In this document: piece after piece, positions 24,268 to 64,000 of the stretch
Position numbering within the stretch: position 1 is the first letter of the stretch
Layout of the letters: each line of letters opens with the position of its first letter
Assembly (NCBI GenBank): GCA_008632985.1
Contig: QPGO01000002.1
Span: 372,001 to 436,000, forward strand
Reading direction: 5' to 3'
From: Psammoneis japonica
Lineage: Eukaryota
DNA: 64,000 bases
Program-made: the position numbers and the translations under genes
Notes under the pieces: model-generated
The model's database searches: none
What the model saw: only the letters and a program-made list of their open reading frames with translations
What the model was told of the DNA's origin: nothing

Positions 24268-24372
24268 GTATACTTCTGTATTCTCGTTCGTACTTGTGCA
24301 TTTCCTGTGTTTGCCTTACTTCGTTCTTTTCTGATAGAACTTGTGCCTGTGGGGATGTAGTGTACTGTGTCG

Positions 24373-29028: not shown

Positions 29029-29166
29029 AGAGTGACTCAATAACTGATAACTTTAGAAACTGCCATTGAATAATGATACCAAGTCGTGTCCATAGTAATT
29101 TGCGCGAGTCTTGGAACTCCTCTACTGCATCTTTTCCTCTAGCCATCTGTATTCGCTTCACTAGAC

Positions 29167-30209: not shown

Positions 30210-31433
30210 ATGATGGCCCCGCAGTCGAACCAAAACTCTATCGAATACACCATGCCCGAGTACAACAACACTGACCGCCCTACTTCTCCCGTCAAGGCTG
30301 CCGTCATTGGCACCGGCTATGTCGGTCTCCCACTTTGTGTCCTTATGAAGGATTGCGGTCACCTCGTTACCGGGTTTGATCTCAACATGAAGCGTACCGT
30401 CAGTCATTCCATGGGAGTGTCCACCATTGATGACGTGCAGGATCATGAACTCGAGGGTATTGCCTTTACTTCGGAAGCTACCGCGATTGAGGATCACGAT
30501 GTCTACGTCATTTGTGTTCCGACTCCCGTCACGGAAAGCAAGATGCCTGACCTCAAGTACGTTCGATCCGTCAAGAGTACGCTCATGGAGCACGCCAAGC
30601 CCGGTGCACTCATTATCCTGGAGAGCACGGTTGGTGTGGGAGACACCCGTCGTGTATTCAAGGACATGTGTGCCGAGGGATTTCGCGTTGCCAACAGTCC
30701 CGAGCGTATCGACCCGTCGCGCAAGTTTCCTACTCTCCAAGACATTCCCAAGGTTGTCGGTGGTGTCAATGCCGAGTCTACCATGGCGGCCTTTTCCTTT
30801 TACAGCACGGTATTCACTTCGGTGGTGCCGGTACGCAACTCGGATCACTCGGAGGCGGTCAAGCTTTTGGAAAACTCGTACCGAGCCGTCAACATTTCAT
30901 TCATCAACGAGTTCGCCGACTTTTGCGACACGTCCGATTTGGAAGTCAATGACGTTGTGGATGCCGCTAGTACCAAGCCGTACGGCTTCTCTCCTTTTCG
31001 TAGCTGGATTGGTGTCGGTGGACACTGCATTCCCGTGGATCCACACTACCTAATCGGATCGGATGCCAACCTCAGTTGGCCTATTCTATCAAGCTCCATG
31101 GCGTCCATGCATGCTCGCCCGAGCAAGCTTGCCAACGACCGCGTTCAGGCGGGTGACCTTGAAAAGGTGTTGGTGTGTGGCGTGAGCTACAAGCCTAACG
31201 TGTCCGATACGCGTGATGCGCCTCAGTCGGACTTTGTGCGCACCATGAAGAAACAGGGAGTCAAGGTTGACTTTTTTGACCCGCTCGTTGACTCGTTTGA
31301 AGATCTTGACCGCAAGGATAATCTCGCTGATATTGAGGACTATGACAAGGTGTTTGTCATGCACAAGCACAAGGTGTGCGCCGAGGAGCTTGAGGAACTT
31401 CGTGGAATTCCCAACGTAGAGTTCTTTTGCTAG
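30210..31433 (+). CDS. UDP-glucose/GDP-mannose dehydrogenase family protein, copy 2
   Basis: Differs from copy 1 at only a handful of residues. Confidence 0.9.
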   Translation: MMAPQSNQNSIEYTMPEYNNTDRPTSPVKAAVIGTGYVGLPLCVLMKDCGHLVTGFDLNMKRTVSHSMGVSTIDDVQDHELEGIAFTSEATAIEDHDVYVICVPTPVTESKMPDLKYVRSVKSTLMEHAKPGALIILESTVGVGDTRRVFKDMCAEGFRVANSPERIDPSRKFPTLQDIPKVVGGVNAESTMAAFSFYSTVFTSVVPVRNSDHSEAVKLLENSYRAVNISFINEFADFCDTSDLEVNDVVDAASTKPYGFSPFRSWIGVGGHCIPVDPHYLIGSDANLSWPILSSSMASMHARPSKLANDRVQAGDLEKVLVCGVSYKPNVSDTRDAPQSDFVRTMKKQGVKVDFFDPLVDSFEDLDRKDNLADIEDYDKVFVMHKHKVCAEELEELRGIPNVEFFC

Positions 31434-31563
31434 AGAGTGACTCAATAACTGATAACTTTAGAAACTGCCATTGAATAAAGATACCAAGTCGTGCCCATTG
31501 TAATTTGCGAATCTTGGAACTCCTCTACTGCAACTTTACCTCTATCCTTCTGTATTCGCTTCA

Positions 31564-45700: not shown

Positions 45701-48700
45701 ACAGCCTTGCTGGGGCTTCACTCATGACTGACCTGTTGAGTTGGCATTTGTGCAACATTGGCTCAAAGCCAATGTTGGGGATGCAAAAGTGCAGGATTGG
45801 GTCCAAAAATGGTTGTGGCAGCAGGAACCCCAGAGGGGAAGTCTGTCAGATTTGCTTGCACAAAACACGCATCATGGCAGTGCCTCTGTCTGGTGTGCCC
45901 AGCCTCAAAGCATCATCTGATGTGGCTCACAAGTTGGTGTGGTCACAGCTTTTGGACAACATGGATGCAGCCATGATCTTGGCAGCCTGCAATTTTTGGA
46001 ATGTGCTTGCAGTGTGCCGTGGCAACAACTTCGTTCTTGCACCACATCTGTGCAAAATCTGACTGTCTTTTGGTGTTCCAAAGAAGTCCAAAGCAAAGTC
46101 TGGGGCAGACATGATCCAACTCTGAGTGGGACCTTGCAGTGCTGTTGGCTGTGACAGAACATTTGTTGATCATGCACCACACAAACGTCAAGCACATTTC
46201 AGTGCACTTTCTTTTGCAAAAAACATTTCAAATGCTGCACGCCAGAAATGATGCACTTCAGGAATGGGCACTTGAAGTCAATCAAAAATTTTTTTTTTGT
46301 TGTTGGCAATCATTGACTTGTCAATTGCCTTCTGGTTGTGATGCAGAGCTTGCGTGCAGAATTCCACATGCCCAGCAGTCTCACATGGTGCCCCCCCATC
46401 CAGGGCCAGAGGAGTGCACATGGGAAAAAACCCACTGAACACCAGATTTGAAAGGGCTGTGCAAGTGATGGAAACTGCACTCACTCTCACATCATGTCAT
46501 GTCAGACCTGCAATTTTCTGCACTTTCTAGAGAGCATCTGGTGCCCTCAATGACCAGAGCAGTGCCTGCACTGCTGGCAAATGAATTGTTGTGATGTGCC
46601 CCAGTCTGCTTCATTCCATCTTGCAGTCTCCTTGTTGCTTGTGGCATGACACGCAACAGCCAAGCAGAGCATCAAAGAAAGTGCAACATGGGTGCCACCA
46701 CCAACAAGTGCAACAACCAACAGCTTGTTTGCAGTGTCATGCGTGTGGTCTGCATCAAACTTGTTGTTTGAAACAAAAAGTGAGCAATGCTTTTTTTTGC
46801 AGATTTTCACAAAGGCATCAATCAGTGTCCATGGTCAAATGTTTTGCTTGCCACAAAAGAGCCCAACTGTGTGCCACACCCTCCATGCATGCTCTTGGAT
46901 CACAGCCAAATTGCTGGCCATCTGGCCCCACATTTTCCAATCTAAAGAGTGCACTTTCAATGGGGCAGGTGCCGATTGTCTTGTTGGGATCTTGATGTGA
47001 GGTTGCACAAGAGACAGACAAACACCTCTCTGAGCAAGCTCTGGCAGCAGCTTGTCTGTGGTGTGCTTGCCTCCTGTGGTGTGGTGTGCCACACATGTCT
47101 CCTGTGTTGCAAAGCAAAGCATCACCTTGTTTTGCTTTGGCAAACACCTCACAGGGCATGACACAACAGGAGCAGTTGTCAAAGTTGTCTTCGTGCATCT
47201 CAGCTGACATTTTGCATCTGCTGTGAAACTCCTCTTCCTTGGCATCACAATCAAAATCAGGTTTTTTGCACACATGAGTTCCAGGACAAAGCCCCGCTGC
47301 TCCCATGGCTTGAGTTGTGTCTTGTGTGGCAATTGTGCCAGCATGCACTCTGGAACAATCAAGTCCAGACACTTGGCAGAAGATGAAGCTGAATGTCTGG
47401 ATGACATCCCTGCACCCTTTTTGCCAGTGACGACAGAGAAGGCAATGAGCAAGGCCTCAGGCCCTGCAAGTGAGTCAATCAAAGGCCACAAAGTCTCATG
47501 CTAAAAAATCTCCTTGAAAACTTGTCAAACAATCAGTTCTGTGTGTGGCAGCATGGCAATGTGGTGACAATTCTTCTCCAGAAGAATGCAGGCAGAACAT
47601 GCTCTTGAACTCATGGTCTTGTTGGAGAGAGGATGGATGGAGCAACTGCAGAGCCATGCACTCAAGCCAACTTGTGAGCTTCTTGTTGCAACATGTTTCC
47701 ATCTGCAATTTGGTTCTCTAACAGTTCGGTCATTGGCCTGCACAGTTGAAGACCGTTTTCACCTTGTTTCAAGTCATGAAGCTCCAAGGATGGCCCACAC
47801 ATGTGGCTGATGCAATGGACACTTCCACAGAGGAAAGGTGCAAAGACAAAAAGAAGACATGCAATGAGCAAGAAAAGAACCCCAACAAGAATTCTTCTTG
47901 TCATGCTGCAAGCAATGCTCGTGACAGCAGAAAAGCTTGCCAAAGTCAGCACTTGAGGAGTTTTGGCTTTCAACAGTTGCTGTGACAGTGCACGGTTTGC
48001 AGCTTGCACTTGCTGGTGCAGACCTTCCCATCAGTTGAGAGTCTCTGCATTCCATGGAAAACAAGAATCCCACAATGTTGTCACACCTGTGGGGACCCCA
48101 GCAAGTCTGTGCATTGCCCACAACTGATTTGGCTCTGTGACAGACATGCGGCAGTTTTTCCATCACAAAAACAGCAAATTGACCATGCAGATTGCTGACA
48201 CTGCAATGCTTTTTGTCACCACCTTTCCAGCTGCTTTTCAATGTGAATGGATGGACAGTGGTCTCATGATGAAGGCCCTGCAATGTGGCATCTTTTCGGA
48301 TGTTGTTCAGTCCAACATCTTGTTTGCCTTCTGTGATGTGTGCCTCAAATTTGGTTGCCCTTTGCACAGACAACAACTGTGCCAAGGGTTGCACTGCTGC
48401 ACTGTCACTTGGTTGTTGGACAAAGAACTCCAGCACAGCTGCTGTGAAGCACATGAGCCAAAAGAGTTTTGCTTCTGAGGATTGGGTGCTGAGCAAAATG
48501 AGAGAAGACAAGGAGGAAGACATGGCCATCATGGATTCCACACAGACACAGTCTCTGAAGCAGGCTGCAAGGACAAACTGCTGCTCCCAACACTTTTGGC
48601 ATTTTAGAAGTGCCATCTCAAAGCAACTGGAAATTTACAACTGGTGTTGATCATGGCAGAACTGTGGGCTCCAGTTGGAAATTTGGTCGACACTGATGTC

Positions 48701-49675
48701 TGTTGGATGATTTTGCAAATGAGCTCCAGCAGTCAAGCAGCAATGCCGTCACAGAGCAAATCAGGCAATCCTTGAAAACACAACCACAACATGACTGGCA
48801 TGTTGGGTTTTAGAAGAGTTTCTTGGGCAGCAATGACTGTCAATGCAAGATTCTAAGACACCAATTTTCAATGCTTTGTGGAGCATGATTGGAGTTGGAG
48901 AATCCGCAAAAACGCAACTCAACTGGCATGTTGGGTGGCCCTGTTTTACTGTGTGGGAGTTGCTCAAGCTGCAGCTGCTGTTTCAAGAAATCAAAGCAAT
49001 GTTTTGCTGAGCATTTCCATCAGAAAATGCCTGGAGCAAATTAAGAGTCACAGAAACAAAACCTGGAATCTAGAGTTGTGGCAAGAGTGCACTGTGTGCA
49101 CTGACAAATGGGGCTGCACACATCTCAGACAACAACATTTCAGACCCTCTCGCTTGTGGTTCTCTGATGGGTGGGCATTGTGGACATCTGAAAGGGGAGA
49201 TGGCTTGGCACTCTTTTTTTGTTCCTGGCACCTCTCACTGAACACATGTTTGCTTGACTCCACCAACCTGCAACACATCATTTGTGGTTGTTTTTCACAA
49301 TCAAAGCTTCCCTGTCAACAAAAAAATCACTGAGAAGACATGCCAGTTGCTCTGCTTTTTTGCCAGTTTTTTCTTCCACATTTGGATGCCATGATTGGAG
49401 GCATTTGGGGGGTGTCGCTGCTTGGCAGCAGCGATGCAAGGGCACAATTGCTGCGGCAATTTCTTCCACTGAACCTCGCCAACAGGAGCAGAACAAATGA
49501 CTCATTGAAAACAATCACCAGCAGAACAGCCAGAAAAATGTTGGCACACAACAAACTGAAAAATGGAAATTGTCGTGGTGACCAACACAGGATGTCACTC
49601 GAAAAAGTTGCTCCGTCAGATGGACGTGCAGAGGGGGGATCCCCCCCTTCGCTCGTCAACTTGTGAACACTGCAC
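42780..49675. mobile_element. Long degenerate TpA/CpG-depleted element (unclassified), host of nested insertions
   Basis: About 7 kb nearly free of TA and poor in CG. Continues after the insert at 55339. Confidence 0.6.
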
Positions 49676-50718
49676 TGTCAGCCCATCTGTCTGCATGTTG
49701 CATGATGGACAGACTGGATGCAGATGATGGCTGGACCATTTGGACAGACGAGCAGATCTCTCTGAGATCTGCTTCTCACTTTCTCATCTGCTGGTGCTCG
49801 TGTCATCACAGTCCTGGCACTTTGGGGAGTCTTTCACACCTCTGTCCTCCATTGCCTTCCGCATTCTGTCAGGTTGTGGCCTTGCGCTGTGCCACAGACC
49901 TCTGCGCCAAGCTTTCATTTCGATTCATTTGTTTTGTGAGCCGATCGAGCCAGCCTCATCGTCTGATCCGACAACTTTTTGTCTCGCTTTCCCGGCATTT
50001 TTCACGACCGTCCAGATTTCTACGCGTGTATGACCAAAAATGGCTCCACCGACGCGTTCCAGGTCTAGGTGGGACCTCGCACTGCTGAACTGTGACATCG
50101 ATAGTTTTTTGAATCTCGTCGTATGTCGCGCACGTAGAATTCTACGTGATTTTTTGAAATTTTGTGTCATTTTACGGTACACTTATCGAGCGATCCGTCC
50201 AAAAACTTTTGACATTTTTTGTTACAGCGCGATTCTATAATGTCTTAAGAATCGCGTAGGGCAGGTGCATTTGCAAAAACGTCGTGTGGTAAGAGGCATG
50301 CCGGCAATTGTACCACAAACTTGGCCGTTTATTTAATGTTGAAGATAAACATGTCCATTTTAATTAAATAAGACTGACTAAATAGAAAGGTCACCATTTG
50401 CCAATTTTGGGCCAAAAATTGAGTTTTTTGCTTTTGGCATTAGTGAAAACTAGAGCAAAAATGCTTTCAAACGATGTGTCGGTCATTTTGTGGGTCCGAT
50501 TTCTTGAAAAATGGCACCAATCTTGGGGTTTCCATGGGATCGCATGCCGGACGCGCGCACTCTTCAAAATGCGCGTAAATTGCACACCACGCACTTTGTC
50601 AGCCACGTAAGAAGCTGCTGTTGTTGCCGCTGGTACACTTTTGGCAGCCATTTTTATTTTTTTCAGAAAATAGAACAGCACACCATTTTCCCGCAGCAGC
50701 AACTGTCTTTCGTCCACA

Positions 50719-53019
50719 ATGGCAATGGACGACGACGATGCCGGCAACAACCGGTCTGACTCAGTTGGCAGCCTGTATGCAAAGCTCAGAGTCAAGCCTC
50801 ACCCTTCACGTGAGGATGCTCTTGAGATGTGCAAGGAATTTCTTCAAAATGCATTTGACAGCCCGAAGTGTGTGGATGTTCGGGGGCGGCCAACGAGGTG
50901 CGAATGTTTGCATGCTTTTCGGACGCGGACAGAGTGGCTTCCCTGCATTGCAAAGTTCATGTTGGATGAGGTGGCATGCAAGAGCAGAGACGACAGGGAG
51001 AGCCACATCCTGCAACAATGTCGGTCATGCCAGTCCACGAAATTTCTTCCCGTTCCAGCTGCGGGCAAGCCACCGGGCTCCGACGTGTTGACATGCAAAA
51101 ATGCTTTCAAGCACATTGTGAATGTACGTCAAAAAGCTGACAGAAGGGTGAAAGAGGCGATTCAATCAAACATGGCAACGTCGCATGGCAACAAGGGCAA
51201 ACCATCAAATGCAAGAATGAAGGCAGACGTGGAAACGTCGTTGCACGTTTTTTTCAAAGACATGATGGAACTTGCTTCTCCTCGAGCCACAAGGTTTGTT
51301 CGACTAGAAGTCGGGGTGGGGACCAGGGATGATGATGAGGAGCTGCTGGAGCTCCCAACCCATTGGACGGCTCGCCGACTGTGCGGCAAATGGGTTGGCG
51401 AACGAGGATGGAAAGCCAAGCTCAAGAATGACAAAGGGGCGATTGAATTGACACAAGCAGCAGAAGACGTGGAGCTGCAAAAGACAGTTGTTTTTGAAAC
51501 TTTCCGTTCTTTCTGGAAGAGAAGCTGCCCAAAGCCAGTTCTTCCTAAAGCTGGGGAGGACATTTGTTCTGACTGCTTTGTGCTGTCGCATGCTTTTCGT
51601 TGCTTCTCGTCGCCTCGTCCTTTGAACAGCAGTGACACTCCAGTGAATGGACATCCAAGGAGAGAGGAGGCAGTGGCAAAAGCTCAAATCCACATCCAAC
51701 AGGCTGTTGCTCAGAGAGAACTGTTCAATTCTCTCACTGCCGAATGCCTTGAACAGGAACTCATTGACGTGCTTGTTGGCGACTGTTCCGAAAACATGGA
51801 CCTTCCACACCTTGGCAATGAGCAATCAGGTGACACTTGCTGCTTTTCTCCATTGAATGTAAATTGTTTTGGACTTGTCAACATGAAAGACAACTTGCTC
51901 CAAGCATGCGTGTGCCACGAGGGCCAAGGTAAAAAAGGAGGCAACAACGTCGCATCACTCATTGTGAAGCATCTAAAGGACAAAGGGTGTTTGGAGGTTG
52001 ATGATGATGGAACAGCAAAGCAAATTCGAGCAAAGCTTGCTGTTGTCATGGACAACTGCTCGGGTCAGAACAAGAACAGGATGGTTCTTCGGCTGGCCCT
52101 CTACTTGGTTGAGCGGGGATTCTGTCAAACCGTGCAGTTTGTGTTTCTTGCAGTCGGGCACACAAAGAACCCTTGCGACCGGATGTGTGACATCTTGTAA
52201 AAGCCACACAGAGACTCCAATGTCTATGCCTTCAAGCAAATGATGGAATTGTTGAATGAAAACGAGAATGCTGCCGCCACCGCTGTGGACGAGGAAGACT
52301 TCCAAGACTGGGATAAGAAACTCGATTCATTGCATCGACGCTTCGCCCCCAGCACCGTCCACAAGAGCCACATCTTTTCTGCAACAAAAGCCTCGCCAAC
52401 TGACATGAAAATTCAGGTGTCTTGCCGGGAGGAGGATCAAGGTGAGACTGCCACAAGAGAATTCAAAAAGCCTGGGACCAACAGCAACAGAATGGAGCTC
52501 TTGCAGGCGGCACCCCAGGTCATTCCATTTCCTGGAATTCCCGACATTAAACAAATAGAGCTTGGGACAAAATGGAGGAAGCATGTTCCAGTGGAGCATC
52601 AGGATGAGATTTGCCCCATGCCACCACAAGCAATGATCGACAGACACAACAAGTCAAAAGCAGACAAGGCCAAAAGGAGCAAAAAGACTGTTTCCAATTC
52701 GAGATCAAGACAATCTCCCACTGCCGCTGCTGCTGCTGCATCCACTCAACCCCCAGCTGTTCCTGCCACTCAACCACATTTTACAGCCCAGCAACCTGCA
52801 GCACCAGCTGCTGCTGCCGCCCCGCCGCCGCCGCATTTCGTCAACCCGAATTTCGTCAACCCGCATGGTCTACAACAACAAATGCTTCCGATTGCGGCAT
52901 TGCATCCAACTGCAGCTGCTGAAGTGCAACAGCACATGCAAACCCTTCACTCCACTCTTAACTGTTCTACTATTGAGGAAATTTTGGCGCGTCCACATGG
53001 TCCCTGCTGGCACGGTTGA
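50719..53019 (+). pseudogene. Sola-type transposase, one in-frame stop (52198-52200), Tyr-depleted
   Basis: EDICSDC, LPHLGNEQSGDT..FSPL, HEGQGKKGGNNVASL, DNCSGQNKN and GHTKNPCDR. The ORF at 52240-53019 is in the same frame. Confidence 0.85.
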
Positions 53020-53047
53020 TTGGTTGGAGCGATCACGTCGGCGGCAC

Positions 53048-53550
53048 TGTCCATCTGAACAGAGTGTATGACAACAAAAATTTTAGACGATACCAAAAAG
53101 AAACACAACCATCATACTCGATACATTCATATTACCTTATATCCATGATGTTAATCATGTGACATTGACCCAGTGATGGTCGCTTTGTTAATACGGAGCA
53201 TGGCCGAGTCGCGTGGAAACCACACAAAATCATCCAAACAGAGTGTGGCAACAAGAATTTTAGACGACATCAAAAAACAAACACAACCATCATACTCGTC
53301 ACATTCATATTGAGTTATGTCCAAGCTCTGTATCATGTGATATTGTTCCAGTGAGGGTCGATTCATGAATGTGGCCGAGTCGCAGAGAAACCACAAACAT
53401 GCTGTCCATCTAAACAGAGTGTTGCAACAAGAATTTTAGATGACACCAAAAAACAAACACCACCAGCATACTCGACAGATTCGTATTACCTTATGTCAAT
53501 GCTTTTAACCGTGTGATATTGTCCCAGTGACGGTCGCTTTTTATGAACAC
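53048..53550. repeat. Three tandem units of about 170-180 bp in the right arm of the transposon
   Basis: aacagagtgt..caacaa.aattttaga.ga..caaaaa..aacac..c..catactcg occurs three times. Confidence 0.85.
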
Positions 53551-56079
53551 AGCGGCGTCTCCATGGTGCTGCTGCGGTTTGCGGTGCGCGTGATGGTTTT
53601 TTGCTTTTTTCTCAAAAGTAACCATCACGTCTGTCTGTTTTCCATGGTTTCCTTTTTATTTAGTCAGTCTTAAATTCTCGTACTACGGAGCTCGCACGTA
53701 GAATTCTACGGGCCCAATGTCACACGGAGTCCCACCCAGGGCTGGAACGCGTCCACCAACTAAAACCATGGCGTCTTCCGACCCCACAAAGCCCGCTCTT
53801 CCGTCCATCACAGAGATCCACTGTGAATTCGAGGCACACACAACGATGCCACATCTGCATGACTGCCTGAATGCAATTCATGCAGACTCCACAACTGATC
53901 TTGACCCGTTCTTTGACGATCCAGAGCATGCGCAACCCAAGAAAGATTTCGTGGACATGCTTCGTGATTGCTTCATCAACGAAGCGTTTCCACCCCACAC
54001 AGCTGATCCTGCGGATGTACAGTCAATCAAGACAATTGTGGATCAAGCCCCGTTCTGACTCATTGACTCTCAAAGACCTCGTCCAGTCCGTTTGACGACT
54101 CCGATCTTGTCAAAGATGATCAAGACGAATCTCCAGAACAATGAGCAATCTCTGTTCATTCTCATCTCCACCCAACGTGTGTGTGTTGATCCGGACATGA
54201 CATGGAACTGTTGCAGTTGGAACAAATTCTCTCTTGCACCCTGACAGCAGAAACAGCAGCCTCCGTCTCCTTCTCAGAAAGCTGCAGGACCTGCTGCATT
54301 GACTGTGAATGACTCAGTCAATGTGCTCAATGCACACGCGTCGAGTCACGCTCCGCCTTCTACAGCTTCTGCCAAGCCATCTGGAAGTGCTGCATCTTCT
54401 GTGACATCAAAACACCTCTTCAATCCGAACACACTGCCCAAAGATGTTCGTGCACGCTGCGACCGCAAAGAAGACGGAAAAGCCACTCTTCGGAGCTCTC
54501 TCGTCCCTTGTGACCATGGATTCCGTCACTGTGTTGATGCATCCGATCGCATCATCCTTGACGATGGCACCCTTTTCATCATGAGCTCGACTCCTGACCA
54601 GAAAATGTTGTTCAGGGAACCTCCTGCATGTCATGACGACTCTCCCCCTGGGGTGCGAGCATGGCACCAAAATTTCCAATGTCATGCCTTTGATTCAGGA
54701 TGCCACATGCATCCATTGTGGTGTTTTGCTGAGGACCACGGTGGTGAGAAGGGTTTCGAGATCAGAAACGGCAAGGATGATGACTTGCCTCAACGCATGT
54801 GCATCCACTGCAAGGAAGCTCAGAGCTCTCTCCACAAAATCCCATCCAAGTCGGACATGTTCCCCAAGAACAGCAAACATCATCGGATTGTTGCATCATG
54901 CTGCGGCAATGGATGCAAGGCTCTCAAGCAGATTGTCTGCGAGAATCATCCTGCTTTCGACCACGATGCTGCTGGGCTGGTTGACTCCCATCCTGTCCAA
55001 GGCAATCGATCATTGACGGACTGCCACATGATCTTCAATGATTTCCTGCAGCTGCGCGCCTGCATTTTTGATGCGGACTCTACATTGAATGATCCACGAG
55101 AGATGACCATCTTTGTCAAGAACACCAAGTGCTCCAAGTTCTCATCTCATGCCACCAGAGATGAACGGAAGTCTCCAGCTGTGCAGAAGAAGTGCGCGGA
55201 TGCACAGATTGTCGAGACTCTCTCTGATTTCCTCCGCCAACCGGGTGGCCCATCCCTTGCCACTCGTGCGATGCAATCCAATCCCCGCCATAAATGGAGT
55301 CGAGCAGCTGAGGATGCGCGACCTTTGGAATTCTGTCATGCACTGCAAAATTGAAATCAGCACAATCCATGACCGCCCTTGGAATTTTTTCTTTGCAGTG
55401 TCGTCTTTTCATTGTCAAGGCATCAGATCAACAACAACAATTTACAGCACTGGCCAAGTTTGAGTGCACCTCATGTCATGTGTTGAATTTTTGGAGCTGT
55501 GTTTGACCCAATTCATGCATGCTTGAAAAATCGATGGAAGATAAAAGTTGTCAAGCATCAATCACCAACACATCACAACATTGTTGCGAACTTGCGCACA
55601 AGATTGATTTTCTGTTGTGCCCATTGAGACAACCAAACATGATGATGACTTTGGTTCATGACATGCACGAACTAAAATTTTAGTTCAATTTTTGAAAAAT
55701 TGGAAAAAAATTCACAGGAATGTTGTGAGATGTGTTGTTGGTTTAGCACTGAAGCATGGAAATGCACAACAGGAAGCAACAGCAGTTGCTTTCCTTCCCA
55801 TTTGCTTTTTTTCATTTGAGTCACTCACAACTTCGTTGACTCTCCTGTCTCGACATCATCTCTGAAGCATGAAGCTCTCATCTCTTTGCATGGGACAAAC
55901 CGCGCGGCAGTTGTGTGATGTTTCATTTGCCGCCTCGACAAGAGGTGGCAGTCCCATGAGGATTGGGAAGGCCAGAGGCAATTTTGTAACAAGGTTGCGG
56001 GTGACCATGGCACAAGAAAGGGAAGGATGAAGTCTTTTTTGGTGTTCACTGTGCACAGCTGCATGCTGTGGACTGACAA

Positions 56080-56805
56080 ACAGTGCTGCATGCATCCAGC
56101 TGCAGTTGCCCCAGCTCAGACAACATTTCAGACCCTCTCGCTTGTTGTTCTCTGATGGGTGGGCATTGCGGACATCAGAAAGGGGAGACAGCTTGGCACT
56201 CTTTTTTTTTTGTTTCTCCGGCACCTCACACTGAACACATGTTTGCTTGACTCCGCCAACCTGCAAGACATCGTTTGTGGTTGTTTTTTACAATAAAAAC
56301 TTCCCTGTCAACAAAAAATCACTGAAGATGTGCCAGTTGCTCTGCTTCTTTTTGCCAGTTTTTTCTTCCATTTGGGTGCTGTGATTGGAAGCATTTGGGT
56401 GTTGTCGCTGCTTGGCAGCAGTGATGTTGAGGCACAATTGCCATGGTCGAAAAACACTTTCTGCCGGCCGGCAATTTTTTCCCACCAAACCTCACCAACA
56501 GGAGCAGAACAACGATTCATTGAAAACAATCACCAGCAGAACAGCCAGAACAAGGTTGGCATGCAACAAACTGAAATGGAATTTATCGTGGTGACCAACA
56601 TGAGATCTCACTCGAAAAAGTTGCTCCATCAGATGGACGTGCAGGGGGGATCCCCCTTCGCTCGTTAACTTGTGAACACTGCACTGTAAAATTGAAATCA
56701 ACACAATCCATGACCGCCCTTAGAATTTTCTTTTTAGTGCCTTCTTAATTAAGGAGTCAGATCAACAAAAACAATTTTTTATTGTCAAGTTTGAGTACAC
56801 CTTAC
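56080..56805 (+). repeat. Second, uninterrupted copy of 49090-49675 plus 55339-55470
   Basis: Shared ctcagacaac..catttcagaccctctcgcttgt...gaaaaagttgctcc.tcagatggacgtgca...gtgaacactgcactg and aaattgaaatca.cacaatccatgaccgccctt. Confidence 0.88.
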
Positions 56806-57219: not shown

Positions 57220-58967
57220 TCAATTCAAATTCTTCCACGCCGTCGGCATCATGTCATCTGGGATCATCATTGTATGTCGAAACGCCGAATGCACTTCATG
57301 ATCCCGGGTGTAGAGTTCGTCTTCAAATAATATGGCATCACGAGGCACGCCAAACACCACGTGTTTGAAAATTTCTCTTGTTTCGTGTGTCTCGTTGTCC
57401 AAGATCCTCTCAATGACTTCCACATTGTACAAGACTTGTCCGCGAACAAAATAATGTCCAACGATTCGTACCATGCAATAGTCAACTTGTTGTTTAGACG
57501 CCTTTGTTCCGCTGTTGTATTCTAGATAGATACCATGCATCCAAACTGTGAGATTCGGCGAGTAGTATGGAAATTGGTCGTATGGCCAAAATATACTGTC
57601 AAGATCCTCATTCAATTCAAATCCAGCCTGGTATCGAATAGAATCCCTGGCGGGAACAAACGTCTTGATATGATTACTCCATGCCTCTTCCCAGTCAGAT
57701 CCATAGTCGATGAGTATTTCTTCATTCCTGTCGATATCCCGCAACGCCAAAAATCAAAAGCCAATCCGGTATGATAGTAGTCGTTCAAGGATGTGACGGA
57801 CATGTTCATCCATTCAGCATGGGTCTGGCTGTCAGACCATTGGATCTTTGCATTTGGCCTTTGAGACGAGTGATTAATGAGACTTGTAAATATCCCATAG
57901 GGAACGAGCAACAGCGATGAGTTGGCGTGTCCAAAGCAGTAGTTTAGCAATAGTTGCTGATGAACCACTTTCTTGTGCTTCTCATTGTCTTCATAAATGT
58001 CCAAAATGGACCGATTGGGAATCTGAATCAAGGGAGCTGGAGCCACCAAGCCACCCTTTGGTATAAAGTGTGCGGCAAAGGCACCACGGCCCGCTTGTGG
58101 AATGGTGGATGGTCCGGGTCGAATGTTATCGGCGCACTTGCCATGCTCGTCGAGCCATTCCAGGGAACGAATGGATCTATTGTAGTACGTTAGAGCCGTG
58201 CCAATCTCGGCAATGTGTTCCACAGAAGAATACGAATCCGGCAATGCGTGAAGGAGTCTTGATTCTGATCCAACTCCGTGTTTCATACCAGCAATGATGT
58301 TCCAGAGGGCACTGAAACGTCGTGTCGACTCGGCCTTTTCCTCAGTAGCAGTCCACAAGATTGCATTCTTGGTTAAATTGACAAATTTTTGAATGACGGC
58401 ATCGGCTTGCACAAAATGTCGTTCAAAGGGAATGTTGTGACCAAACTCGTCGGCACGTTCTATAACGTATTGCTCACCCCCATTCGTAAACAGTTCCATA
58501 CCAGGGGGGATATCTGTATCGGCGTAAACTTTGCGATCATGATAGGGGGTAAAGGCTCCCACTCCTGGATCCTTGGAGCGATGCAATCCGGCATTATCCG
58601 ACGCGGCCACAGTGCCTTTGACATTGTGTAATCCAAACATGCAATTTATCGCGGCACCCACGCCAAATGTTACCGCATACCTGACTTCGTCTTCTTCTTC
58701 TAGAAGGTGTGGTAAGACTTCAGTTGCTGCCCACGTGTAAGTGTCCTGTAGCAGAAACGGATAAGCGTCTTGGTGGGGCATGTCGTAGAGCGGCACTGCC
58801 AAGTCGCCGTCGACAACCAGATCATGGCGTTTAAAAGATCTGTGGCCTGCAAAAATACCGAGACCCGCGTTGGGAAGGGACGAAGGAGCCAAATATAATC
58901 CACATTGCTCTGAAGCAGTCGCATGTGTATTTTGAGACAAGAACGAGAATAACACCGCCAGAATCAT
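57220..58967 (-). CDS. Signal-peptide SET-domain-like protein, paralogue of 1841-3999 (one apparent frameshift near 57750)
   Basis: CGLYLAPSSLPNAGLGIFAG, STIPQAGRGAFA, LLLNYCFGH, SLINHS, then ALRDIDRNEEILIDYG and AFRHTMMIPDDMMPTAW in the next frame. The shift falls in a short T run. Confidence 0.8.
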
Positions 58968-59347
58968 AACTCATAACGCATTGATGGTTTGCACAGCTGG
59001 TCTCGTTTGCGGAGTTTGAAGTTGGAGAGTGGAGCGGTGAGCGCAATGCTAACGGAGCTCGAAATAGCTCGTATGGTCGATTTTGAGGTACTACCGTATG
59101 AATACGGATCGAAAGCTCTTGATCTCAGCTTTTCAGCGATGTATGTATCAATAGCTGGCAATGCTTCCATGACATTTTTTTAGCCTTAAACTAAATTAAC
59201 GGCTTTAACAGTTTACTATGAGTTTTTTGACCGTTGAGATAATGCGCGAAATAACATGCCAAGACAGTCACGTGACTGTCAAGCATGTACAAAATTACAC
59301 AAACTATTTTAAGCGCTCAAACAGGGTTCGAATTTGAAAAACTCTTG

Positions 59348-61688
59348 ATGGTGGCAACAAGAGCAAAGCAAAGCAGAGTCACAAAAAAATGGCGCGGCCG
59401 AAACCAACCAAAGACGTCAAGGGCGATGAGGCCGCAGAAAAGTTCTGCGATTGGCTTTCCAACCCTGCAGAGTCTCCCATTTTCCACGAGTGCTGCACCC
59501 AAGCAACTGCAAAGAACCTGCGAAATGTCAGTGTCTGCAGAAGCCAAGAGCAGTGTTGGAGAACAACGACAGCTCCTTCGTGAAAATGCTGAGCAACTGC
59601 CTCGTGCACTTTGAAAGACTGGGGTGCACAGAAACACATGCCACTTTTGCATCCTAGATTGAACATTCTGCTTTTGTTCAGAAGCATGCGTGCAAGGGTG
59701 GTTGTCGCTGCTTTGTTTTGCCGCTGTTGAAAGCTGACGCTGACGACGACGAGGAGGAGGAGGGGACACCACCAGATGATCATCTGGTCTGCTGCAGTGC
59801 CCTCCTTGCATTGCTGGGCAAAGGGAGAAAGTTCTGGAGAACTGCCAAGTTGAGTGCAAAGAGCAACGTCTTTCCGAAACACGATCTCAAAGGGAAGACT
59901 GGGCAGAACGCGAACAAGACGCTTGCACCCGAAATGCACACAGTGCTTCGCGCATGTTTTGATGACACAAAGGAACTTTCTGAACCACGCACAACGAGAC
60001 TGGTCAGAGAAGAGACAGGTGTTGGCTTGAGAGATGAAGACACGCACGCACATGACTCACCTCCCACCATGAAAAAGCATGGATCATGCAAACGACACGG
60101 ACAAGAAAATGGCTGGACCCTCAAATCGAACCACAAAGGAAAGTTTCTCAAGGCGGAACCAATTGAAGGAGAAGAGCAGCAACCAATGTGCTCCTGGGCA
60201 CAATTTTGCAAGTTCTGGAAAAAGAGCTGTCCTGAAATTGTCGTGAGAAGGCCCACTCGTGACATCTGCAACGAATGCTGCAAGTTCGCAAATGGCTTCA
60301 GGATGAAAGTGATGAAAGAAAAGACGGGGGGTGAGAGCAATGACGATGACAACAAGGAGGAAAGCAATGATGATGAAGAAGATGGAGCAGATGCAGAGGT
60401 GAGAATGAAAGAGATCGAAGAACAGGAAAATGAAATGTTGCACGCTGCAAAGCACGTCGAGTGGGCTCGAAAGCAATGGACACTTGTGCAACAGTGTGTT
60501 TCGGAAGCAACAGAACACGTGAAAGCCAACAAGGCACACGGCAAGCGAACTCATGCAAGGATTGGTTGCTGTTGTCAAAATGGCGGGCTTCCACATTTTG
60601 GGGCGGATCAGCCAGGGGAGATGCGCTGCTTCTCTCCTTTGACGATCAACATGTTTGGGGTTGCCGATCCTTCGGGGAAAAAAGTTGTGACAGTGACGGA
60701 AGATGAGTTCAAGGATTTTTTGCATGCGTGCATCTGCCATGAGGGCACTGGACAAAAGGGAGGTGACAATGTTGCTTCCCTTGTGATGAAGCACTCACAT
60801 GATGGTGGATTGTTGGATGTCAGGAAGGGTCCAGGCGGAAAGCTTGCATTGATTTTTGACAACTGCATCAGGCAAAACAAAAACAACACGGCATTGAGAC
60901 TTGCTTCACACCTGGTGGAACAAGGACATTTTAAAGAAGTGAGCATTGTTTTTTTGACAAAAGGGCACACCAAGAATGCCTGTGACAGGCTCTTCAAAAG
61001 CCTCAAGCAAACTCACCATGACAAGAACATCGGCATGTTCCGCAAACTCTTGACAGATTTGGACACCTCCGAATGTGTTCAGGTCGTTGAAGTGAAGGAG
61101 GAGGATTTTGTGGGGTGTGGAGCGCACTTTGACCAACATTGCAAGAAGCACAGCACAGCTGCAAAGTGCCACTGCTTTGAAGTGACAGATTCTTCGGAAC
61201 CTGCGGCAGCAACAATGAAAGCAGCAGATGGCGAGCCTGAAGTTAGCAAGGATCTCAAGAAGTGGAAGACAGAATCAATCGAGCAACGAAAACAGAAGTT
61301 GCAAATGTCACAACCACATGCCTTGACACCTCCAGGTGTCAAGGACACAAAGAAGGTCAAGCTTTGTGCCAAGTGTTGGCCGCTTCTTGATGAGGCAGAC
61401 CAAGACGAGATGTGCCCTCATCCTGGAGACGACATCCTCAATTGCATTGCAAAAAGCAAGAGAGAGAAGCAGAAGAACAAGCAGGTGGAGAGCACTGAGC
61501 AGATGGTGCGAAATGAGAAAAAGAAAACTGCCAAAGCCAGCGCAATTCTTTTGGAGAGGGGCACAAATAAAAATCAACAGCAGTCCTTGTGCACACACAA
61601 ACTTTGTGCAATGTTTTGTGTTTGCACTTGCATCACATCACATCACTCAAAAATCTTGCAAGTGCCATTTTCTCAAAACAAATTTTGA
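59348..61688 (+). pseudogene. Second, divergent Sola-type transposase (decayed; no Tyr in the 656-aa frame)
   Basis: RDICNEC, LPHFGADQPGE..FSPL, HEGTGQKGGDNVASL, DNCIRQNKN and GHTKNACDRLF. The N-terminus is frameshifted and TIRs were not identified. Confidence 0.85.
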
Positions 61689-62149
61689 GAGCTTGAGAGC
61701 ACGCGTCAGCACCTTTTCATGTGGCCAGTCTCATGTGAACATGTCTCAACGCATCATTGTGATGATGTTCAATGTCATCAAACACCACAACCACCTGCAT
61801 CCCACAGTGGCACCATTGCCTGCAGTGCTGCACCAATGGCTGCTCTGATGCAGCCACTCTAGCCACTCTAGAGAACTCAGGGGTGTGTCAGTCCTGGCAA
61901 AAGTGGTGCCAGAGGGCAGCATGCGAGCATGTTGTCAAAGCCAAAAAAAACAGCAACATTTGGCAAACTCATTTTTGAGTGGTCAGGAAAATGGAGGACA
62001 AGGAGCGAGGGAAGTTTGCGAAGCCAAGAACTCCTCCAGTGCAAGCACGAGAAGTTTGCAGTGCATCAGGGACCCCGCACAAGAAAGTTTGGGCTCCCCA
62101 AGGTGTGAAAAAGCAAGAAGTTTGCAAAGAACGTGTTTGTGCCCCCCTG

Positions 62150-62508
62150 GGGCGCCAGTGTGACCTCAGGCAGGACTCTGTGCAGCATGTGCGGGCCCGC
62201 AGAATTTTGTGTGCCAGCTCTGCAACAAAGTTGTTGAGCAACAAACATGTGAGATGATTGACAACAGAAAAAGCAAGGCACAACTTTGCAGGCACATCTC
62301 CTCCTGTGCCTGTGTGTGTTCTTTTGCACACCCAACCCACTTTTTTTTGTGCAGATGAAGAAAATGGAGAGCCTTTGGCTTCACAAGACAGGGTGCATGA
62401 AACAATTGGGTGCACAAAAAATGTGTGTGTGCAGCATGTGGCACGATCCAAAAAATCTCATGCCACACTCCAGCACCAGCGCTGGGCCTCACCTGGAGCT
62501 GGGGTGGG
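62150..62508 (-). mobile_element. MITE-like relative of the Sola-type element
   Basis: gggcccgcagaattttgtgtgccagctc and cacctggagctgg match the two element ends in reverse. The interior aligns with 9480-9770. Boundaries are approximate. Confidence 0.7.
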
Positions 62509-63549
62509 AGAAAGGCCCCGGCATGTGAGAATGGTGCCATGTGGAGCCAAATGTTGTGCCACAGAATCAGCAGCAATGACATGCATGTGCTCTTAAAATT
62601 GTGTCAAAGCAAGAGTGACTTGTGCCACTCACTTGTTGTCTGCACAGCTTGACATGCCAAAAAAACAATGACATGGATTGACTCATCTTGTTGACTTTGC
62701 ATTGCATTTTGCACAATCTGGGTCATCCACCACAATCTTGGTGCTCAAATTGAAGGTGTGAAACTTTTGCTGGTGCTGTGTGTGCTTTGTTTTCACCTCA
62801 GTTGTGTGTGTCAAACAATTGTGCCCCTTTGTGCATGACACATGTCACAGGCTGCTGTGAGCAAGTCAAATTTGCAGACAGACATGCAGAGACTGTGGAG
62901 CAACATGCAAGCCAAGAAGCAGCAGCCAACATGGCTCTGTTTGACAAAAACAGATGACCCCCAATGCAGAGGGGTGTGAAAAGCACAAGTGCAAGCATCT
63001 GGGTTGTGAGCTGCTCTCATGTGGTGGCGTGAGCTGAAAAGGTGGTGAGGAAAGAGGAAAAACTTTGGCCCCTGTTGACTCATGTGGCAGCTGTTGACAG
63101 TTTTTTGGAGCTTGGCAGCCATTGCTGGTGCAAGCCTGTGTGTGGAAGTGAGACAGTGTGGTGCTGCAGCAAGAGCCAGCTGGCACATTTAAACAGCCAG
63201 CTCAAAGATGATTGTTCCATGTCATGCCGGCACAGATGCAGAGCTGCACAACATTGTTGAAGAACAGAACAGAGCCCAAATTCAAGCTTGTCTTGCATCT
63301 TCTTGTTCAAGATTCAACGACTGGCAAAAAAATTCTTTTTCAATGAACTGATGTTCAAACGTTGTTTTGATTTTTTGTCAGTGAGGCACGTGCTTGTGTC
63401 ATGCAGGGTCCCCATCTTTTTGGCAAAAAAAAGTGTGTGGAATTTGATGAGGAGCAATTCTGGCAAAAATGCATGCCATCAATTGTCGTTGTCGTTTGTG
63501 TGGTGTGGCACTTTTGTTGGTGTGGTTGTGTCCTCCCTTGTCTGACACA

Positions 63550-63928
63550 GATGCACTCCAGCTCCAGCAGGTGGGACCTTGCACCACTGAACTGTGACAT
63601 CAAGAGGTTTTTGAATTGCGCTGCATGTTGTTTTTGAATTGCGCTGCATGTTGCACATGCAGATGGCTGCATGTGACATTCTACAAAATTGTTTCATGCT
63701 CCCTGTTTTGCAAAACCAAAGGCTTTCTGTCAAGAATGAAAGTGCACTGGGGGCACACTCTTTGATGTCTGCTTGAGTGTGAAGGAGGAGATGCATTTGC
63801 AAAATTGCTTCTTTTTCTGTTGGCGATCATTCACATTTTCATTGCTTGACAAATTCAGCGTGGAGCTTGCACACAGAATTCTGCGGGCCCAATGTCACAC
63901 GGAGCCCTGCTTGGGGCTGGAACCCATC
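63550..63928 (+). mobile_element. MITE-like relative of the Sola-type element with 4-bp TSD (CACA)
   Basis: Starts gatgcactccag and ends ctggaacccatc. caca at 63546-63549 and 63929-63932. Confidence 0.8.
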
Positions 63929-64000
63929 CACACCTCACAATGTGCTGGCCAGGTGTGTGCAGAATTGCCGGCTGCCATTTGTGCTGGCTGTTGCCAATGT

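Follow-up and report, generated by a model that had tools for sequence, protein, structure and literature searches.

Which process could remove nearly every TA dinucleotide from one tract of nuclear DNA and spare the gene next to it? The last part of the window (the whole 64-kb stretch of DNA analysed here) raises this question: between 59330 and 64000 there are 9 TA, where ~309 are expected from the A and T content and ~173 at the TA observed/expected ratio (o/e) of host DNA, 0.56 (Poisson P ~4e-61), along with 105 CG, 524 TG and 493 CA. An initial annotation had read this as a transposon-restricted, RIP-like conversion of A to G at TpA; its counts of 0 TA and 22 CG in 60001-60600, and of 4 TA in 58171-58195 within the neighbouring host gene, were exact.

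The same signature had been claimed for further parts of the window, and a calculation of windowed TA and CG o/e had been proposed. Run within the 64-kb window, this calculation bore the claim out, mapping seven islands of ~21.7 kb in total (Table 1). With the islands pooled as 250-bp bins (21,750 bp) and compared with the remaining 42,250 bp of the window, TA o/e was 0.04 (62 TA) against 0.56 (1659 TA) and CG o/e 0.30 against 0.99, and TG and CA were nearly doubled (1.85 and 1.76, against ~1.2). Individual islands had a TA o/e of 0.01-0.06, meaning that erasure is essentially complete, and a G+C content of 0.45-0.51, which is not lowered. The longest TA-free gap reached 1277 bp in islands and 219 bp in host DNA, where the mean is 25 bp. 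Island limits, set at single-TA resolution, are as sharp as one or two TA spacings: on the host side of the final island, the last TAs lie at 59288, 59296, 59305 and 59310, and the next TA is at 59655. Where such edges coincide with element ends, editing before integration would explain them just as well. The window is nuclear DNA of a diatom; its host genes (SET, kinases, two UDP-glucose dehydrogenases (UGDH), importin, ankyrin, WS/DGAT) have a TA o/e of ~0.5-0.8, and those adjacent to islands are spared.

Table 1. Features of the window, with positions counted from its first letter.
Feature	Position	Strand	Details
Small TA-erased island, a single 1112-bp TA-free gap, content unidentified	4348..5460	.	
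Old island, TA and CG nearly gone, no recognisable content	7959..12317	.	
Two UDP-glucose dehydrogenase genes in tandem, a host duplicate at 95.6% identity (internal control)	27634..32088	+	copies 27634-29673 and 30033-32088
Old island, almost devoid of TA and CG (CG 0-12 per kb); coding content not recognisable	42818..48811	.	
TA-erased island, ends exactly where the nested young element starts	49071..50021	.	TA gaps
Direct repeat of ~550 bp (LTR-like), left copy	49132..49678	+	
Younger TIR-bounded DUF7869 element, nested in older island	50021..53761	+	TIR ~27 nt, single ORF
Second DUF7869 ORF, 34% identity to the 656-aa ORF, in-frame TAA at 52198	50674..53016	+	
Partly mutated tract within the young element, one of the seven islands	50776..52782	+	13 TA in 2007 bp, CG 74
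TA-erased island, begins exactly where the nested young element ends	53761..56584	.	TA gaps
Third dead ORF, 369 aa, unrelated to DUF7869, no Pfam	54245..55351	+	10 homologues
The same ~550-bp direct repeat, right copy; its end is the island edge	56120..56691	+	
Neighbouring host SET-domain gene, normal TA density	57220..58967	-	best named relatives are diatom proteins
TA-erased island, continues past the window end	59310..64000+	.	9 TA in 59330-64000
Dead DUF7869 ORF (probable DDE transposase), 656 aa, without Tyr	59718..61688	+	PF25273, E 1.8e-17
Old mutated copy, both ends of the 50021-53761 TIR family	63545..63945	+	repeat alignment

Three reading frames within the islands record what was lost. 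The 656-aa frame had been noted to lack Tyr, and it indeed has none, with 5.0% Cys and 4.9% His, against means of 3.8% Tyr, 2.4% Cys and 2.7% His among the 120 homologues listed of 266 (Tyr range 1.2-5.9%). The three motifs in which Tyr had been expected (LHACICHEG, MRCFSPL and SHLVEQGHF) align to the family consensus LxAxxYxEG, TYYxSPL and AxYLVExGYF, so that the expectation was right in each. At its 13 conserved-Tyr columns the frame reads Cys in seven, His in four, and Met and Arg in one each; other conserved residues are mostly retained (His 6/6, Pro 12/13, Leu 22/28), and the remaining losses of conserved residues fit changes in TA-containing codons (Leu to Ser or Pro, Val to Ala, Ile to Met, Thr or Val). 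In the second DUF7869 ORF, with 13 of 15 columns aligned, the conserved Tyr are replaced by Cys (6), His (2) and Phe (4), one remaining Tyr. The 369-aa ORF, whose ten homologues contain 2.7-5.9% Tyr, has Cys in four, His in four and Phe in one of its nine conserved-Tyr columns. The three ORFs come from two unrelated families; of their 35 conserved-Tyr columns together, 17 have Cys, 10 His, one Tyr and 7 another residue.

Two ORFs score 64 and 50.3 bits for DUF7869 (PF25273; gathering cut-off 26). The elements that carry this domain are probably DDE DNA transposons, a lead being that 11% of one Atlas cluster carry DDE_Tnp_ISAZ013; no PDB match was found.

A composition native to these families, which might themselves avoid TA (e.g. 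to evade a nuclease that reads TA, or to keep from inserting into themselves at TA targets), would explain why islands coincide with mobile-element DNA and why the 656-aa frame is open. This explanation we consider very improbable. The YY pair of the motif GETYY, conserved as Tyr in 95% of homologues, has become Arg-Cys and Cys-Cys here; the same change affects two unrelated protein families; non-coding parts are TA-free to the same degree; and one ORF has an in-frame stop. An open frame is itself uninformative on function, since TA to TG or CA can never make a stop codon: the ORFs remain open, yet Tyr is destroyed and the element is dead. The initial annotation had named equally TA-free family members as the finding that would speak against mutation, and 80 metagenome loci of the transposon family turned out to keep a TA o/e of 0.26-0.91, with a longest TA-free gap of 253 bp. 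Because conserved Tyr columns read Cys or His, related loci keep TA, and repeat copies differ by TG against CA, the sequences point firmly to mutation as the origin of the TA deficit.

The repeat copies indicate how the mutations were laid down. Of the aligned YpR sites, 25 of 228 in island repeats show a double difference of TG against CA, and 4 of 860 in host duplicates do (Fisher P ~3e-14); in the 2-kb UGDH duplicate there are none at 507 sites, and 70 TA are shared. Between the two copies of the direct repeat there are 41 transitions and 14 transversions, with 7 such double differences among them. The segment 9399-9779 is related, in inverted orientation, to 63550-63905, double differences being present at 14 of 63 aligned YpR sites, and TA and CG of the young TIR copy appear as TG or CA in the old copy of Table 1. 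As judged from these alignments, repeat copies were mutated independently. The two strands contribute TGY and RCA products in balance, intermingled with each other (runs-test z -1.7 to +1.6). By these comparisons, TpA in the islands has undergone near-saturating A:T to G:C transitions on both strands, TA becoming TG or CA, and occasionally both, which gives CG. The proposal of TpA to TpG or CpA change on both strands is supported by the Tyr replacements in three ORFs, the TA-normal relatives, the double differences and the strand balance.

Could the bases have been miscalled? Modified bases (5mC, 6mA) in transposon chromatin could be read by a long-read assembly as T for C and G for A, and both lost dinucleotides are palindromic and could bear symmetric methylation. 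The island bases were compared, as had been suggested, with contigs built from exact words of sequencing run X1, and the TA-free sequence was reproduced: a contig of 1987 nt at single-copy depth (~60) spans 61531-63518 with one differing letter, although X1 may be the assembly's source sample and its library type is unrecorded, so that base support is not fully independent. Tyr-poor relatives with the same Tyr to Cys or His pattern also occur in separate metagenome assemblies (P0163, P0298 and P0301; P0298 has four cluster members, from two archives), and miscalls on both strands of a palindrome would not yield a clean TG or CA consensus. We therefore regard an artefact as the least probable of the explanations considered. 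Among the 40 of 262 comparison entries listed, 27 of 31 difference events between the window and X1 contigs are YpR interconversions (9 TG/CA, 10 TA against TG or CA, 8 involving CG), and the ten TA differences are a slight hint of events arising de novo; all changes listed against X1 contigs comprise 203 transitions and 32 transversions.

A second layer of change affects CpG. In islands without TA, 0.3-0.6 of the CpG remains, and in the oldest islands both dinucleotides are gone; TA loss is complete where CpG persists, and therefore the two layers differ in rate, with conversion of CpG to TpG or CpA reading as the second and slower one. In Phaeodactylum, DNA methylation disappears when DNMT5a is lost, and young transposable elements are de-repressed (PMC9998398). 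Since diatom transposable elements are methylated by DNMT5, the CpG layer would be ordinary 5-methylcytosine deamination, which explains the CG o/e of islands and part of their TG and CA excess. This decay is restricted to CpG and cannot remove TA, and as sole cause it is rejected by the island TA o/e.

What the islands contain bears on the target of TpA mutation. Identifiable content consists of DUF7869 transposon remnants and one orphan ORF family. The restriction to transposons claimed at the outset can be followed in three islands only, those with identifiable coding remnants; 4348-5460, 7959-12317 and 42818-48811 hold nothing recognisable. The ends of the young nested element keep TA at normal density (32 in 755 bp and 39 in 979 bp) around a mutated interior, and X1 contig depth at these ends is ~110,000 and 50,000, against 60-107 for single-copy sequence. 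Unmutated high-copy ends within old transposon-derived sequence fit neither simple repeat sensing nor simple spreading of a silent domain. The repeat-targeted, RIP-like trigger proposed initially finds no support in these ends or in the host duplicate.

Editing of RNA by an ADAR-like enzyme, followed by reverse transcription and integration, had been judged unlikely in the initial annotation, and this holds for the one copy with readable ends, the young element, in which TIRs surround a single DUF7869 ORF. RNA adenosine deaminases typically edit an A that follows U (5'-UAG for ADAR, PMC10661471; U at -1 for fungal editing, PMC11156358), and the direct-repeat pair could be the LTRs of a retroelement. 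However, the identifiable elements are TIR-bounded, no reverse transcriptase domain was found among 16 + 131 island ORFs, both strands are changed equally and interspersed, the preferred 3' neighbour is a pyrimidine and not G, and differences of TG against CA separate the paired direct repeats of a single element. Moreover, in the chlorarachniophyte Bigelowiella natans a corresponding change arises in integrated DNA (10.64898/2026.01.13.699255). RNA hyperediting is accordingly about as improbable to us as native composition.

The flanking bases carry information on the agent. For islands the ratio (RCAR+YTGY)/(RTGR+YCAY) comes to 1.63, with values of 1.29-1.82 in six islands taken singly; host DNA gives 1.12 (P 4e-12) and the 80 loci 1.15 (P 1e-15). 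TGC, TGT, TGA and TGG rise by 19.1, 10.6, 4.7 and 5.0 per kb. Among surviving TA, YTAR makes up 35 of 62 and RTAY 3 of 62 in islands, whereas host DNA has 278 and 526 among 1659. These values suggest that the edited A usually has a pyrimidine as its 3' neighbour, assuming an ancestral tetranucleotide content like that of the host or the relatives. Against this rule, 9 of the 13 survivors in the partly mutated tract have TAY on at least one strand. Tyr columns with a preceding pyrimidine read Cys in 8 and His in 5 cases, not all Cys, lending the rule weak support.

That the process acts on adenine was part of the original claim, of which the A:T to G:C change is sustained and adenine as the target is not, given that a T-directed change at RTA has the same outcome. 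Deamination of A in TAY and a change directed at T in RTA are the same base-pair change, which the sequence cannot separate, because TA is its own complement. Thymine in R-T-A might thus be modified or oxidised by a host enzyme (e.g. of TET/JBP type, giving 5-hydroxymethyl- or 5-formyl-uracil) and mispair with G, with A to G as the complement of T to C; all data fit this as well. In dinoflagellates, SAR relatives of diatoms, 5-hydroxymethyluracil takes the place of thymine, by preference at TpA and TpC, a parallel in its favour. We saw no sign of such modification in diatoms among the material examined, the preferred T-A-C agrees with the anticodon-loop site on which TadA/ADAT2-type enzymes act, and the only experimental precedent, B. 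natans, proposes adenine deamination; modified thymine is unlikely, though less so than the other rivals.

We consider it probable that a targeted, TpA-specific mutational process has acted on mobile-element DNA here. We infer that the host directs an enzyme system against foreign or mobile DNA; this would most likely be a DNA adenine deaminase recognising 5'-T-A-Y-3', which turns A into inosine, copied as G, in repeated rounds on integrated copies. The process and the TpA hypermutation of B. natans would then be one kind. We lean slightly towards adenine-deaminase chemistry, and action in situ seems somewhat likelier than action before integration. A bolder reading, to which we give rather less than even credence, is that diatoms possess a dedicated nuclear defence, an analogue of RIP with the opposite chemistry, in which a TAY-reading DNA adenine deaminase is guided to integrated transposons and viruses and works there in repeated rounds. 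If so, every TpA, every Tyr codon and most TATA-like or AT-rich signals would be erased without making a stop, and erasure would stop no more than tens of bases from host DNA. Such a defence in both a stramenopile and a rhizarian would imply an immune module of SAR algae that is ancient or has spread horizontally, and a natural source of context-specific deaminases for adenine in double-stranded genomic DNA.

Among known systems, RIP of Neurospora and other fungi is likewise a transition hypermutation limited to mobile or repeated DNA, with loss of coding capacity and fairly sharp tract limits. Fungal RIP changes C to T mainly at CpA and creates TpA. It raises TpA and A+T (for its C to T chemistry, see PMC7296669), whereas here TpA is destroyed, CpA and TpG go up and G+C rises. 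RIP is also triggered by duplication above a few hundred bp, and here a 95.6% identical 2-kb host duplicate is untouched. Fungal RIP was rejected on the removal of TpA and on the unmutated host duplicate and high-copy element ends; that neither RIP nor 5mC decay accounts for the TA loss had been argued from the start, and TA is lost even where CpG persists.

Deaminases acting as mutators offer further parallels. TadA and ADAT2-ADAT3 share with the proposed agent an A preceded by U or T, the natural A34 tRNA context; at the anticodon-loop site of such enzymes, U precedes ACG. To our knowledge, no TadA/ADAT2-type enzyme has been tied to TpA hypermutation in any organism. A table in PMC10661471 gives their motif as 5'-ACG and the substrate as 'RNA, DNA?', which fits T-A-C here. 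ADAR and APOBEC editing resembles the proposed system as deaminase-based antiviral defence in animals, but ADAR prefers a 3' G (PMC10661471) and dsRNA, and APOBEC acts on C.

The closest match is B. natans, and the statement that the signature lacked a description has been overtaken by a 2026 bioRxiv preprint (Mettrop et al., 10.64898/2026.01.13.699255). It reports that 230 of 231 mutations in integrated viral regions of mutation-accumulation lines were A to G or T to C changes, each of them at TpA, arising during vegetative growth in some lines only and at a rate that exceeds background by orders of magnitude, and its authors propose an ADAT2-like deaminase. Both organisms have strand-symmetric TpA to TpG or CpA change with TpA loss coupled to a gain of CpA and TpG in clusters, and the 324 TpA-poor CDS of B. 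natans, nearly TpA-free, are enriched in DDE endonuclease and reverse transcriptase, domains of transposable-element type. B. natans is a rhizarian, whereas the host here is a stramenopile; its targets are giant-virus and virophage inserts, here DNA transposon remnants; its NCLDV region has a rho of 0.45, against an o/e of 0.01-0.06 here; and its events were measured in real time, whereas the evidence here is comparative. The 3'-pyrimidine preference and the superimposed CpG decay are described here, the main text of the preprint being silent on flanking bases, which its Fig. 2B or supplementary tables may cover. The literature searched held no report of TpA hypermutation in diatoms. The present locus combines the A:T to G:C change at TpA on both strands, the TpG and CpA gain and the confinement to foreign or mobile DNA, with three islands lacking identifiable content; what is new is TpA hypermutation in a diatom, the signature itself being known from one preprint on an unrelated alga.

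The initial annotation had described a transposon-restricted change of TpA to TpG/CpA at 59330-64000 and read it as a candidate RIP-like system acting on adenine. The observed loss of TA was confirmed, and the counts given with it are exact (0 TA and 22 CG in 60001-60600; 4 TA in 58171-58195). Region 59330-64000 contains 9 TA, versus ~309 predicted from base composition and ~173 predicted at the host's own TA deficit (P ~4e-61), together with 524 TG and 493 CA. A 1-kb profile identified further regions of the window that are alike, with observed/expected ratios (o/e) of 0.01-0.1 for TA and 1.6-2.2 for TG and CA. By mapping every TA position in the window, we delimited seven islands (see table). 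Pooled over islands, o/e is 0.04 for TA, 0.30 for CG, 1.85 for TG and 1.76 for CA, versus 0.56 for TA, 0.99 for CG and ~1.2 for TG and CA in the rest. TA-free gaps reach 1277 bp in islands, while in host DNA they average 25 bp, the longest being 219 bp. The sharp edges reported earlier were also seen: TA occurs at 59288, 59296, 59305 and 59310, and then not until 59655.

TA-erased islands and compared repeat copies (window positions; double differences are sites with TG in one copy and CA in the other, among aligned YpR dinucleotides)
Feature	Position	TA o/e	CG	TG/CA double differences
TA-erased island	4348-5460			
TA-erased island	7959-12317	~0.01-0.07	0-13 per kb (last 300 bp: 33)	
TA-erased island	42818-48811	~0.01-0.07	0-12 per kb (first 150 bp: 20)	
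TA-erased island	49071-50021			
TA-erased island, partial	50776-52782	~0.1-0.2	o/e ~0.6	
TA-erased island	53761-56584			
Segment measured	53761-55500	0.03	o/e 0.63	
TA-erased island	59310 to window end			
Segment measured	59310-61500	0.02	o/e 0.3-0.6	
Direct-repeat pair	49132-49678 / 56120-56687			7/113
Repeat pair	9399-9779 / 63550-63905			14/63
Left TIR-end comparison				1/29
Right TIR-end comparison				3/23
Host duplicate 1				0/507
Host duplicate 2				1/217
Host duplicate 3				3/136

Outside the islands, the ORFs represent ordinary genes, which encode SET-domain proteins and protein kinases as well as two UDP-glucose dehydrogenases, an importin, an ankyrin protein and a WS/DGAT acyltransferase. 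The SET protein adjoining the island at 59.3 kb has 615 relatives. Since all the named ones are from diatoms (Nitzschia, Cylindrotheca, Pseudo-nitzschia, Fragilaria, Cyclotella) and the best match is 48% identical, the window is nuclear diatom DNA, from a species whose own proteins are absent from the protein collection searched. The window has four SET-domain ORFs from this diatom-expanded family (1775-3477, 12422-13414, 57220-58967); each adjoins a TA-erased island, and at least one has a signal-peptide-like N-terminus. Rfam gave 0 matches over the whole window. A 1152-aa ORF at 20809-24264, with no Pfam match and with ~1089-bp internal repeats (65-87% identical), combines a strong strand skew of T over A with TA that is moderately low (o/e 0.34-0.42) and CpG that is normal; it does not belong with the TA-erased islands. 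Inverted repeats of ~630-750 bp (3-633 and 24060-24816; 83-84% identical, 23.4 kb apart), normal in TA content, bracket the window's first third.

The first island ORF (59718-61688, 656 aa) matches the Pfam family DUF7869, and has 266 homologues by word-indexed search and 1619 by exhaustive search, mainly from marine and freshwater metagenomes, but also from Nitzschia inconspicua and Pseudo-nitzschia. A second DUF7869 ORF (50674-53016) is 34% identical to the first and carries an in-frame TAA. It lies within an element at 50021-53761, which we assign on its sequence features to class II because it is bordered by an imperfect inverted repeat of ~27 nt and carries repeated subterminal motifs. 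That the DUF7869 protein is of DDE type is only a lead: querying PDB sequences with a profile of the family gave one chance match (E 0.82). Our full-text search found no mention of DUF7869 in the literature. The third ORF (54245-55351) is from an unrelated family, which has ten homologues and no Pfam match. Pfam searches of the island ORFs (16 long and 131 short) gave only the two DUF7869 ORFs as real matches, and no recognisable coding content in 4348-5460, 7959-12317 and 42818-48811; weak matches to Methuselah_N, L6_membrane and others were discarded as Cys-rich chance matches. No terminal repeats of the element at 59.3 kb were found by eye or by repeat detection.

A fragment of the same terminal inverted repeat (TIR) family at 63545-63945 shares sequence with 9399-9779 and 62164-62305; in this short copy, the left and right element ends lie close together. 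In the sequencing run X1, whose contigs match the window, summed contig depth is ~110,000 at 50002-50502, ~50,000 at 53509-54009 and ~32,000 at 63529-64000 (single-copy, 60-107), a sign of a very abundant MITE-like family derived from the outer ends of the TIR element. Three tandem copies of a 176-178 bp unit (78-84% identical) lie at 53047-53540, in the right subterminal part of the young element (50021-53761), where TA is normal.

Is the lack of TA native to these elements? The first ORF has no Tyr, as previously noted, with 5.0% Cys and 4.9% His, versus means of 3.8% Tyr (lowest 1.2%), 2.4% Cys and 2.7% His among 120 listed of the 266 homologues. In an alignment with the 60 best homologues, its residues at 13 majority-Tyr columns are 7 Cys (TGY), 4 His (CAY), 1 Met, 1 Arg (CGC) and no Tyr. 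Other conserved residues are mostly retained (His 6/6, Pro 12/13, Cys 7/9, Leu 22/28), and further losses match codons that contain TA (Leu to Ser/Pro, Val to Ala, Ile to Met/Thr/Val). The second ORF has Cys 6, His 2, Phe 4 and Tyr 1 at the 13 aligned columns, and the third Cys 4, His 4 and Phe 1 at 9 Tyr columns, so that the three ORFs pooled give 17 Cys, 10 His, 1 Tyr and 7 other residues at 35 columns. As a control, and not as a second example, we used relatives of the transposase in metagenome contigs (521 candidates, 347 confirmed, best 80 kept, a choice that favours intact copies). TA o/e in these 80 loci is 0.26-0.91, with a middle value of ~0.64; no TA-erased relative was found among them, and the longest TA-free gap in any of them is 253 bp. 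Intact family members are thus not equally TA- and Tyr-free, the 120 homologues and 80 loci being normal. The Tyr to Cys/His columns, the TA-normal relatives and the comparisons of copies support the proposal that TA was lost by mutation. GC-biased gene conversion was ruled out, being specific neither to TpA nor to TEs. A change of TA to TG or CA never makes a new stop (TAA gives TGA or CAA; TAG gives TGG or CAG), and therefore a long open frame in an island is no sign of function. At 60624-60629 (codons 303-304 of the first ORF), the family's near-invariant Tyr-Tyr reads Arg-Cys (CGC TGC). CGC is expected from TAC when one TA is changed on both strands, and therefore the process may itself create new CpG.

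When one TA (or CG) becomes TG in one copy and CA in the other, both bases differ. Such double differences make up 25/228 aligned YpR dinucleotides in island repeats versus 4/860 in host duplicates (Fisher P ~3e-14, calculated with 226 in place of 228); the island copies were mutated independently. Where the unmutated TIR copy (50021-53761) has TA or CG, the old copy (63545-63945) has TG or CA.

We found the window sequence in one sample (three runs of one study), in which X1 covers 0.71 of the sampled words. Exact-word X1 contigs support the island bases, although this sample may be the assembly's own source. The contigs have a single-copy depth of ~60-107, and one of 1987 nt spans 61531-63518 with one difference. 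Because contigs differ from the window even over a host gene (0.65%), X1 carries a haplotype or strain other than that of the assembly. In the contig that covers the host SET gene (57135-58508), 9 positions differ and there is 1 gap over 1375 nt. All listed differences comprise 203 transitions and 32 transversions. Among the 31 events in 40 of the 262 entries, 27 are YpR interconversions: TG versus CA in 9, TA versus TG/CA in 10 (TA in the window in 4, in the contig in 6), and 8 involving CG. Since some sites are TA in one copy or allele and TG/CA in another, this suggests that the process acted in several rounds and continued once the copies had separated, the contigs being alleles or paralogues.

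The residual island TA are enriched in YTAR (35/62, versus 278/1659 in host DNA; P 6e-12) and poor in RTAY (3/62 versus 526/1659; P 4e-7). On both strands, TAC is depleted ~30-fold and TAT ~50-fold in islands, and TAA and TAG ~9-fold. The products gain, per kb, +19.1 TGC, +10.6 TGT, +4.7 TGA and +5.0 TGG, the last two being about what CpG decay alone would contribute. The ratio (RCAR+YTGY)/(RTGR+YCAY) is 1.63 in islands (1.29-1.82 in each of six), versus 1.12 for host DNA and 1.15 for the 80 unmutated relatives (P 4e-12 and 1e-15). The simplest reading is that a pyrimidine usually lies 3' of the changed A (5'-T-A-Y, equivalent to R-T-A for a changed T), a statistical result that assumes ancestors of host-like or relative-like composition. 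In a direct but weak test of context, lost Tyr codons with a preceding pyrimidine gave 8 Cys and 5 His. We take the preference to be real, though not absolute. TG and CA products are balanced between strands and interspersed, and a run test for processivity found no strand clustering of TGY versus RCA products in any island.

CpG is also depleted, to a varying degree. Because islands from which TA is gone differ in the CpG remaining, TA loss comes first and fast, and CpG loss later and slowly. The CpG layer is as 5-methylcytosine deamination predicts. In Phaeodactylum, loss of DNMT5a is reported to abolish DNA methylation and de-repress young TEs (PMC9998398).

What targets the process? A 2-kb tandem UDP-glucose dehydrogenase duplicate, 95.6% identical, is spared, with 70 shared TA; because of this, duplication alone is not the trigger. 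The young element is nested in an older island, whose TA-free sequence ends at 50021 and picks up again at 53761. It is mutated only in its middle, 50776-52782 (13 TA in 2007 bp), while its ends have normal TA density (32 TA in 755 bp and 39 TA in 979 bp). The tract limits fall inside the ORF, with no match to copy-number limits. The ends are embedded in old TE-derived sequence, and X1 depth over their outer parts is the ~110,000 and ~50,000 given above; neither repeat number nor a silent neighbourhood explains why they are unmutated. A tract restricted to some of the transcribed interior, or episodic action of the kind seen in Bigelowiella, would fit.

Three DUF7869 relatives from metagenome contigs, P0163, P0298 and P0301 (P0298 is a cluster of four, drawn from two archives), are rich in Cys and His, with 1.2%, 0.5% and 1.4% Tyr. 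Since they show the same Tyr to Cys/His change at the family's GETYY motif (GETHC, GETCC and GATCH, respectively), this hints that the process may be active in other environmental organisms too. Such Tyr-free, Cys/His-rich predicted proteins are already in public protein sets.

The TpA signature has been described in the chlorarachniophyte Bigelowiella natans (Mettrop et al., bioRxiv 10.64898/2026.01.13.699255). In mutation-accumulation lines, two integrated viral regions mutate ~1000x faster than the rest; A to G or T to C accounts for 230/231 changes, and all of them lie at TpA. Windows poor in TpA and rich in CpA and TpG form 124 clusters in that genome, which also contains 324 nearly TpA-free CDS in which DDE endonuclease and reverse transcriptase domains are enriched; an ADAT2-like adenine deaminase is proposed by its authors. 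Neither flanking bases nor diatoms are mentioned in the preprint's main text, and its figures and supplementary tables may give the flanking context. Our full-text search for the signature found this one description, and literature searches on diatoms, other stramenopiles and adenine-based genome defence found nothing beyond it. The phenomenon reported here is the diatom case of a process described once, in 2026.

The same footprint, at saturation, in a diatom means that the process is not peculiar to Bigelowiella, and places the question within a group that can be studied genetically and is of great ecological importance. To our knowledge, C to T changes (fungal RIP, animal APOBEC) are the only well-established form of targeted hypermutation in genome defence, and an A:T-to-G:C counterpart has only just been reported, in one alga. 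Because island ORFs are open but dead and Pfam-blind, islands defeat TE annotation; composition-based gene and HGT calls are also distorted. Handles for an enzyme hunt are the 3'-pyrimidine context, TA loss preceding CpG loss, tracts ending inside an element and spared host duplicates. The T-A-C context is closer to a TadA/ADAT2-type site than to an ADAR-type site, because of the motif of the former and because the U before A34 is invariant. In a review table, the motifs are 5'-ACG for TadA/ADAT2 and 5'-UAG for ADAR (PMC10661471).
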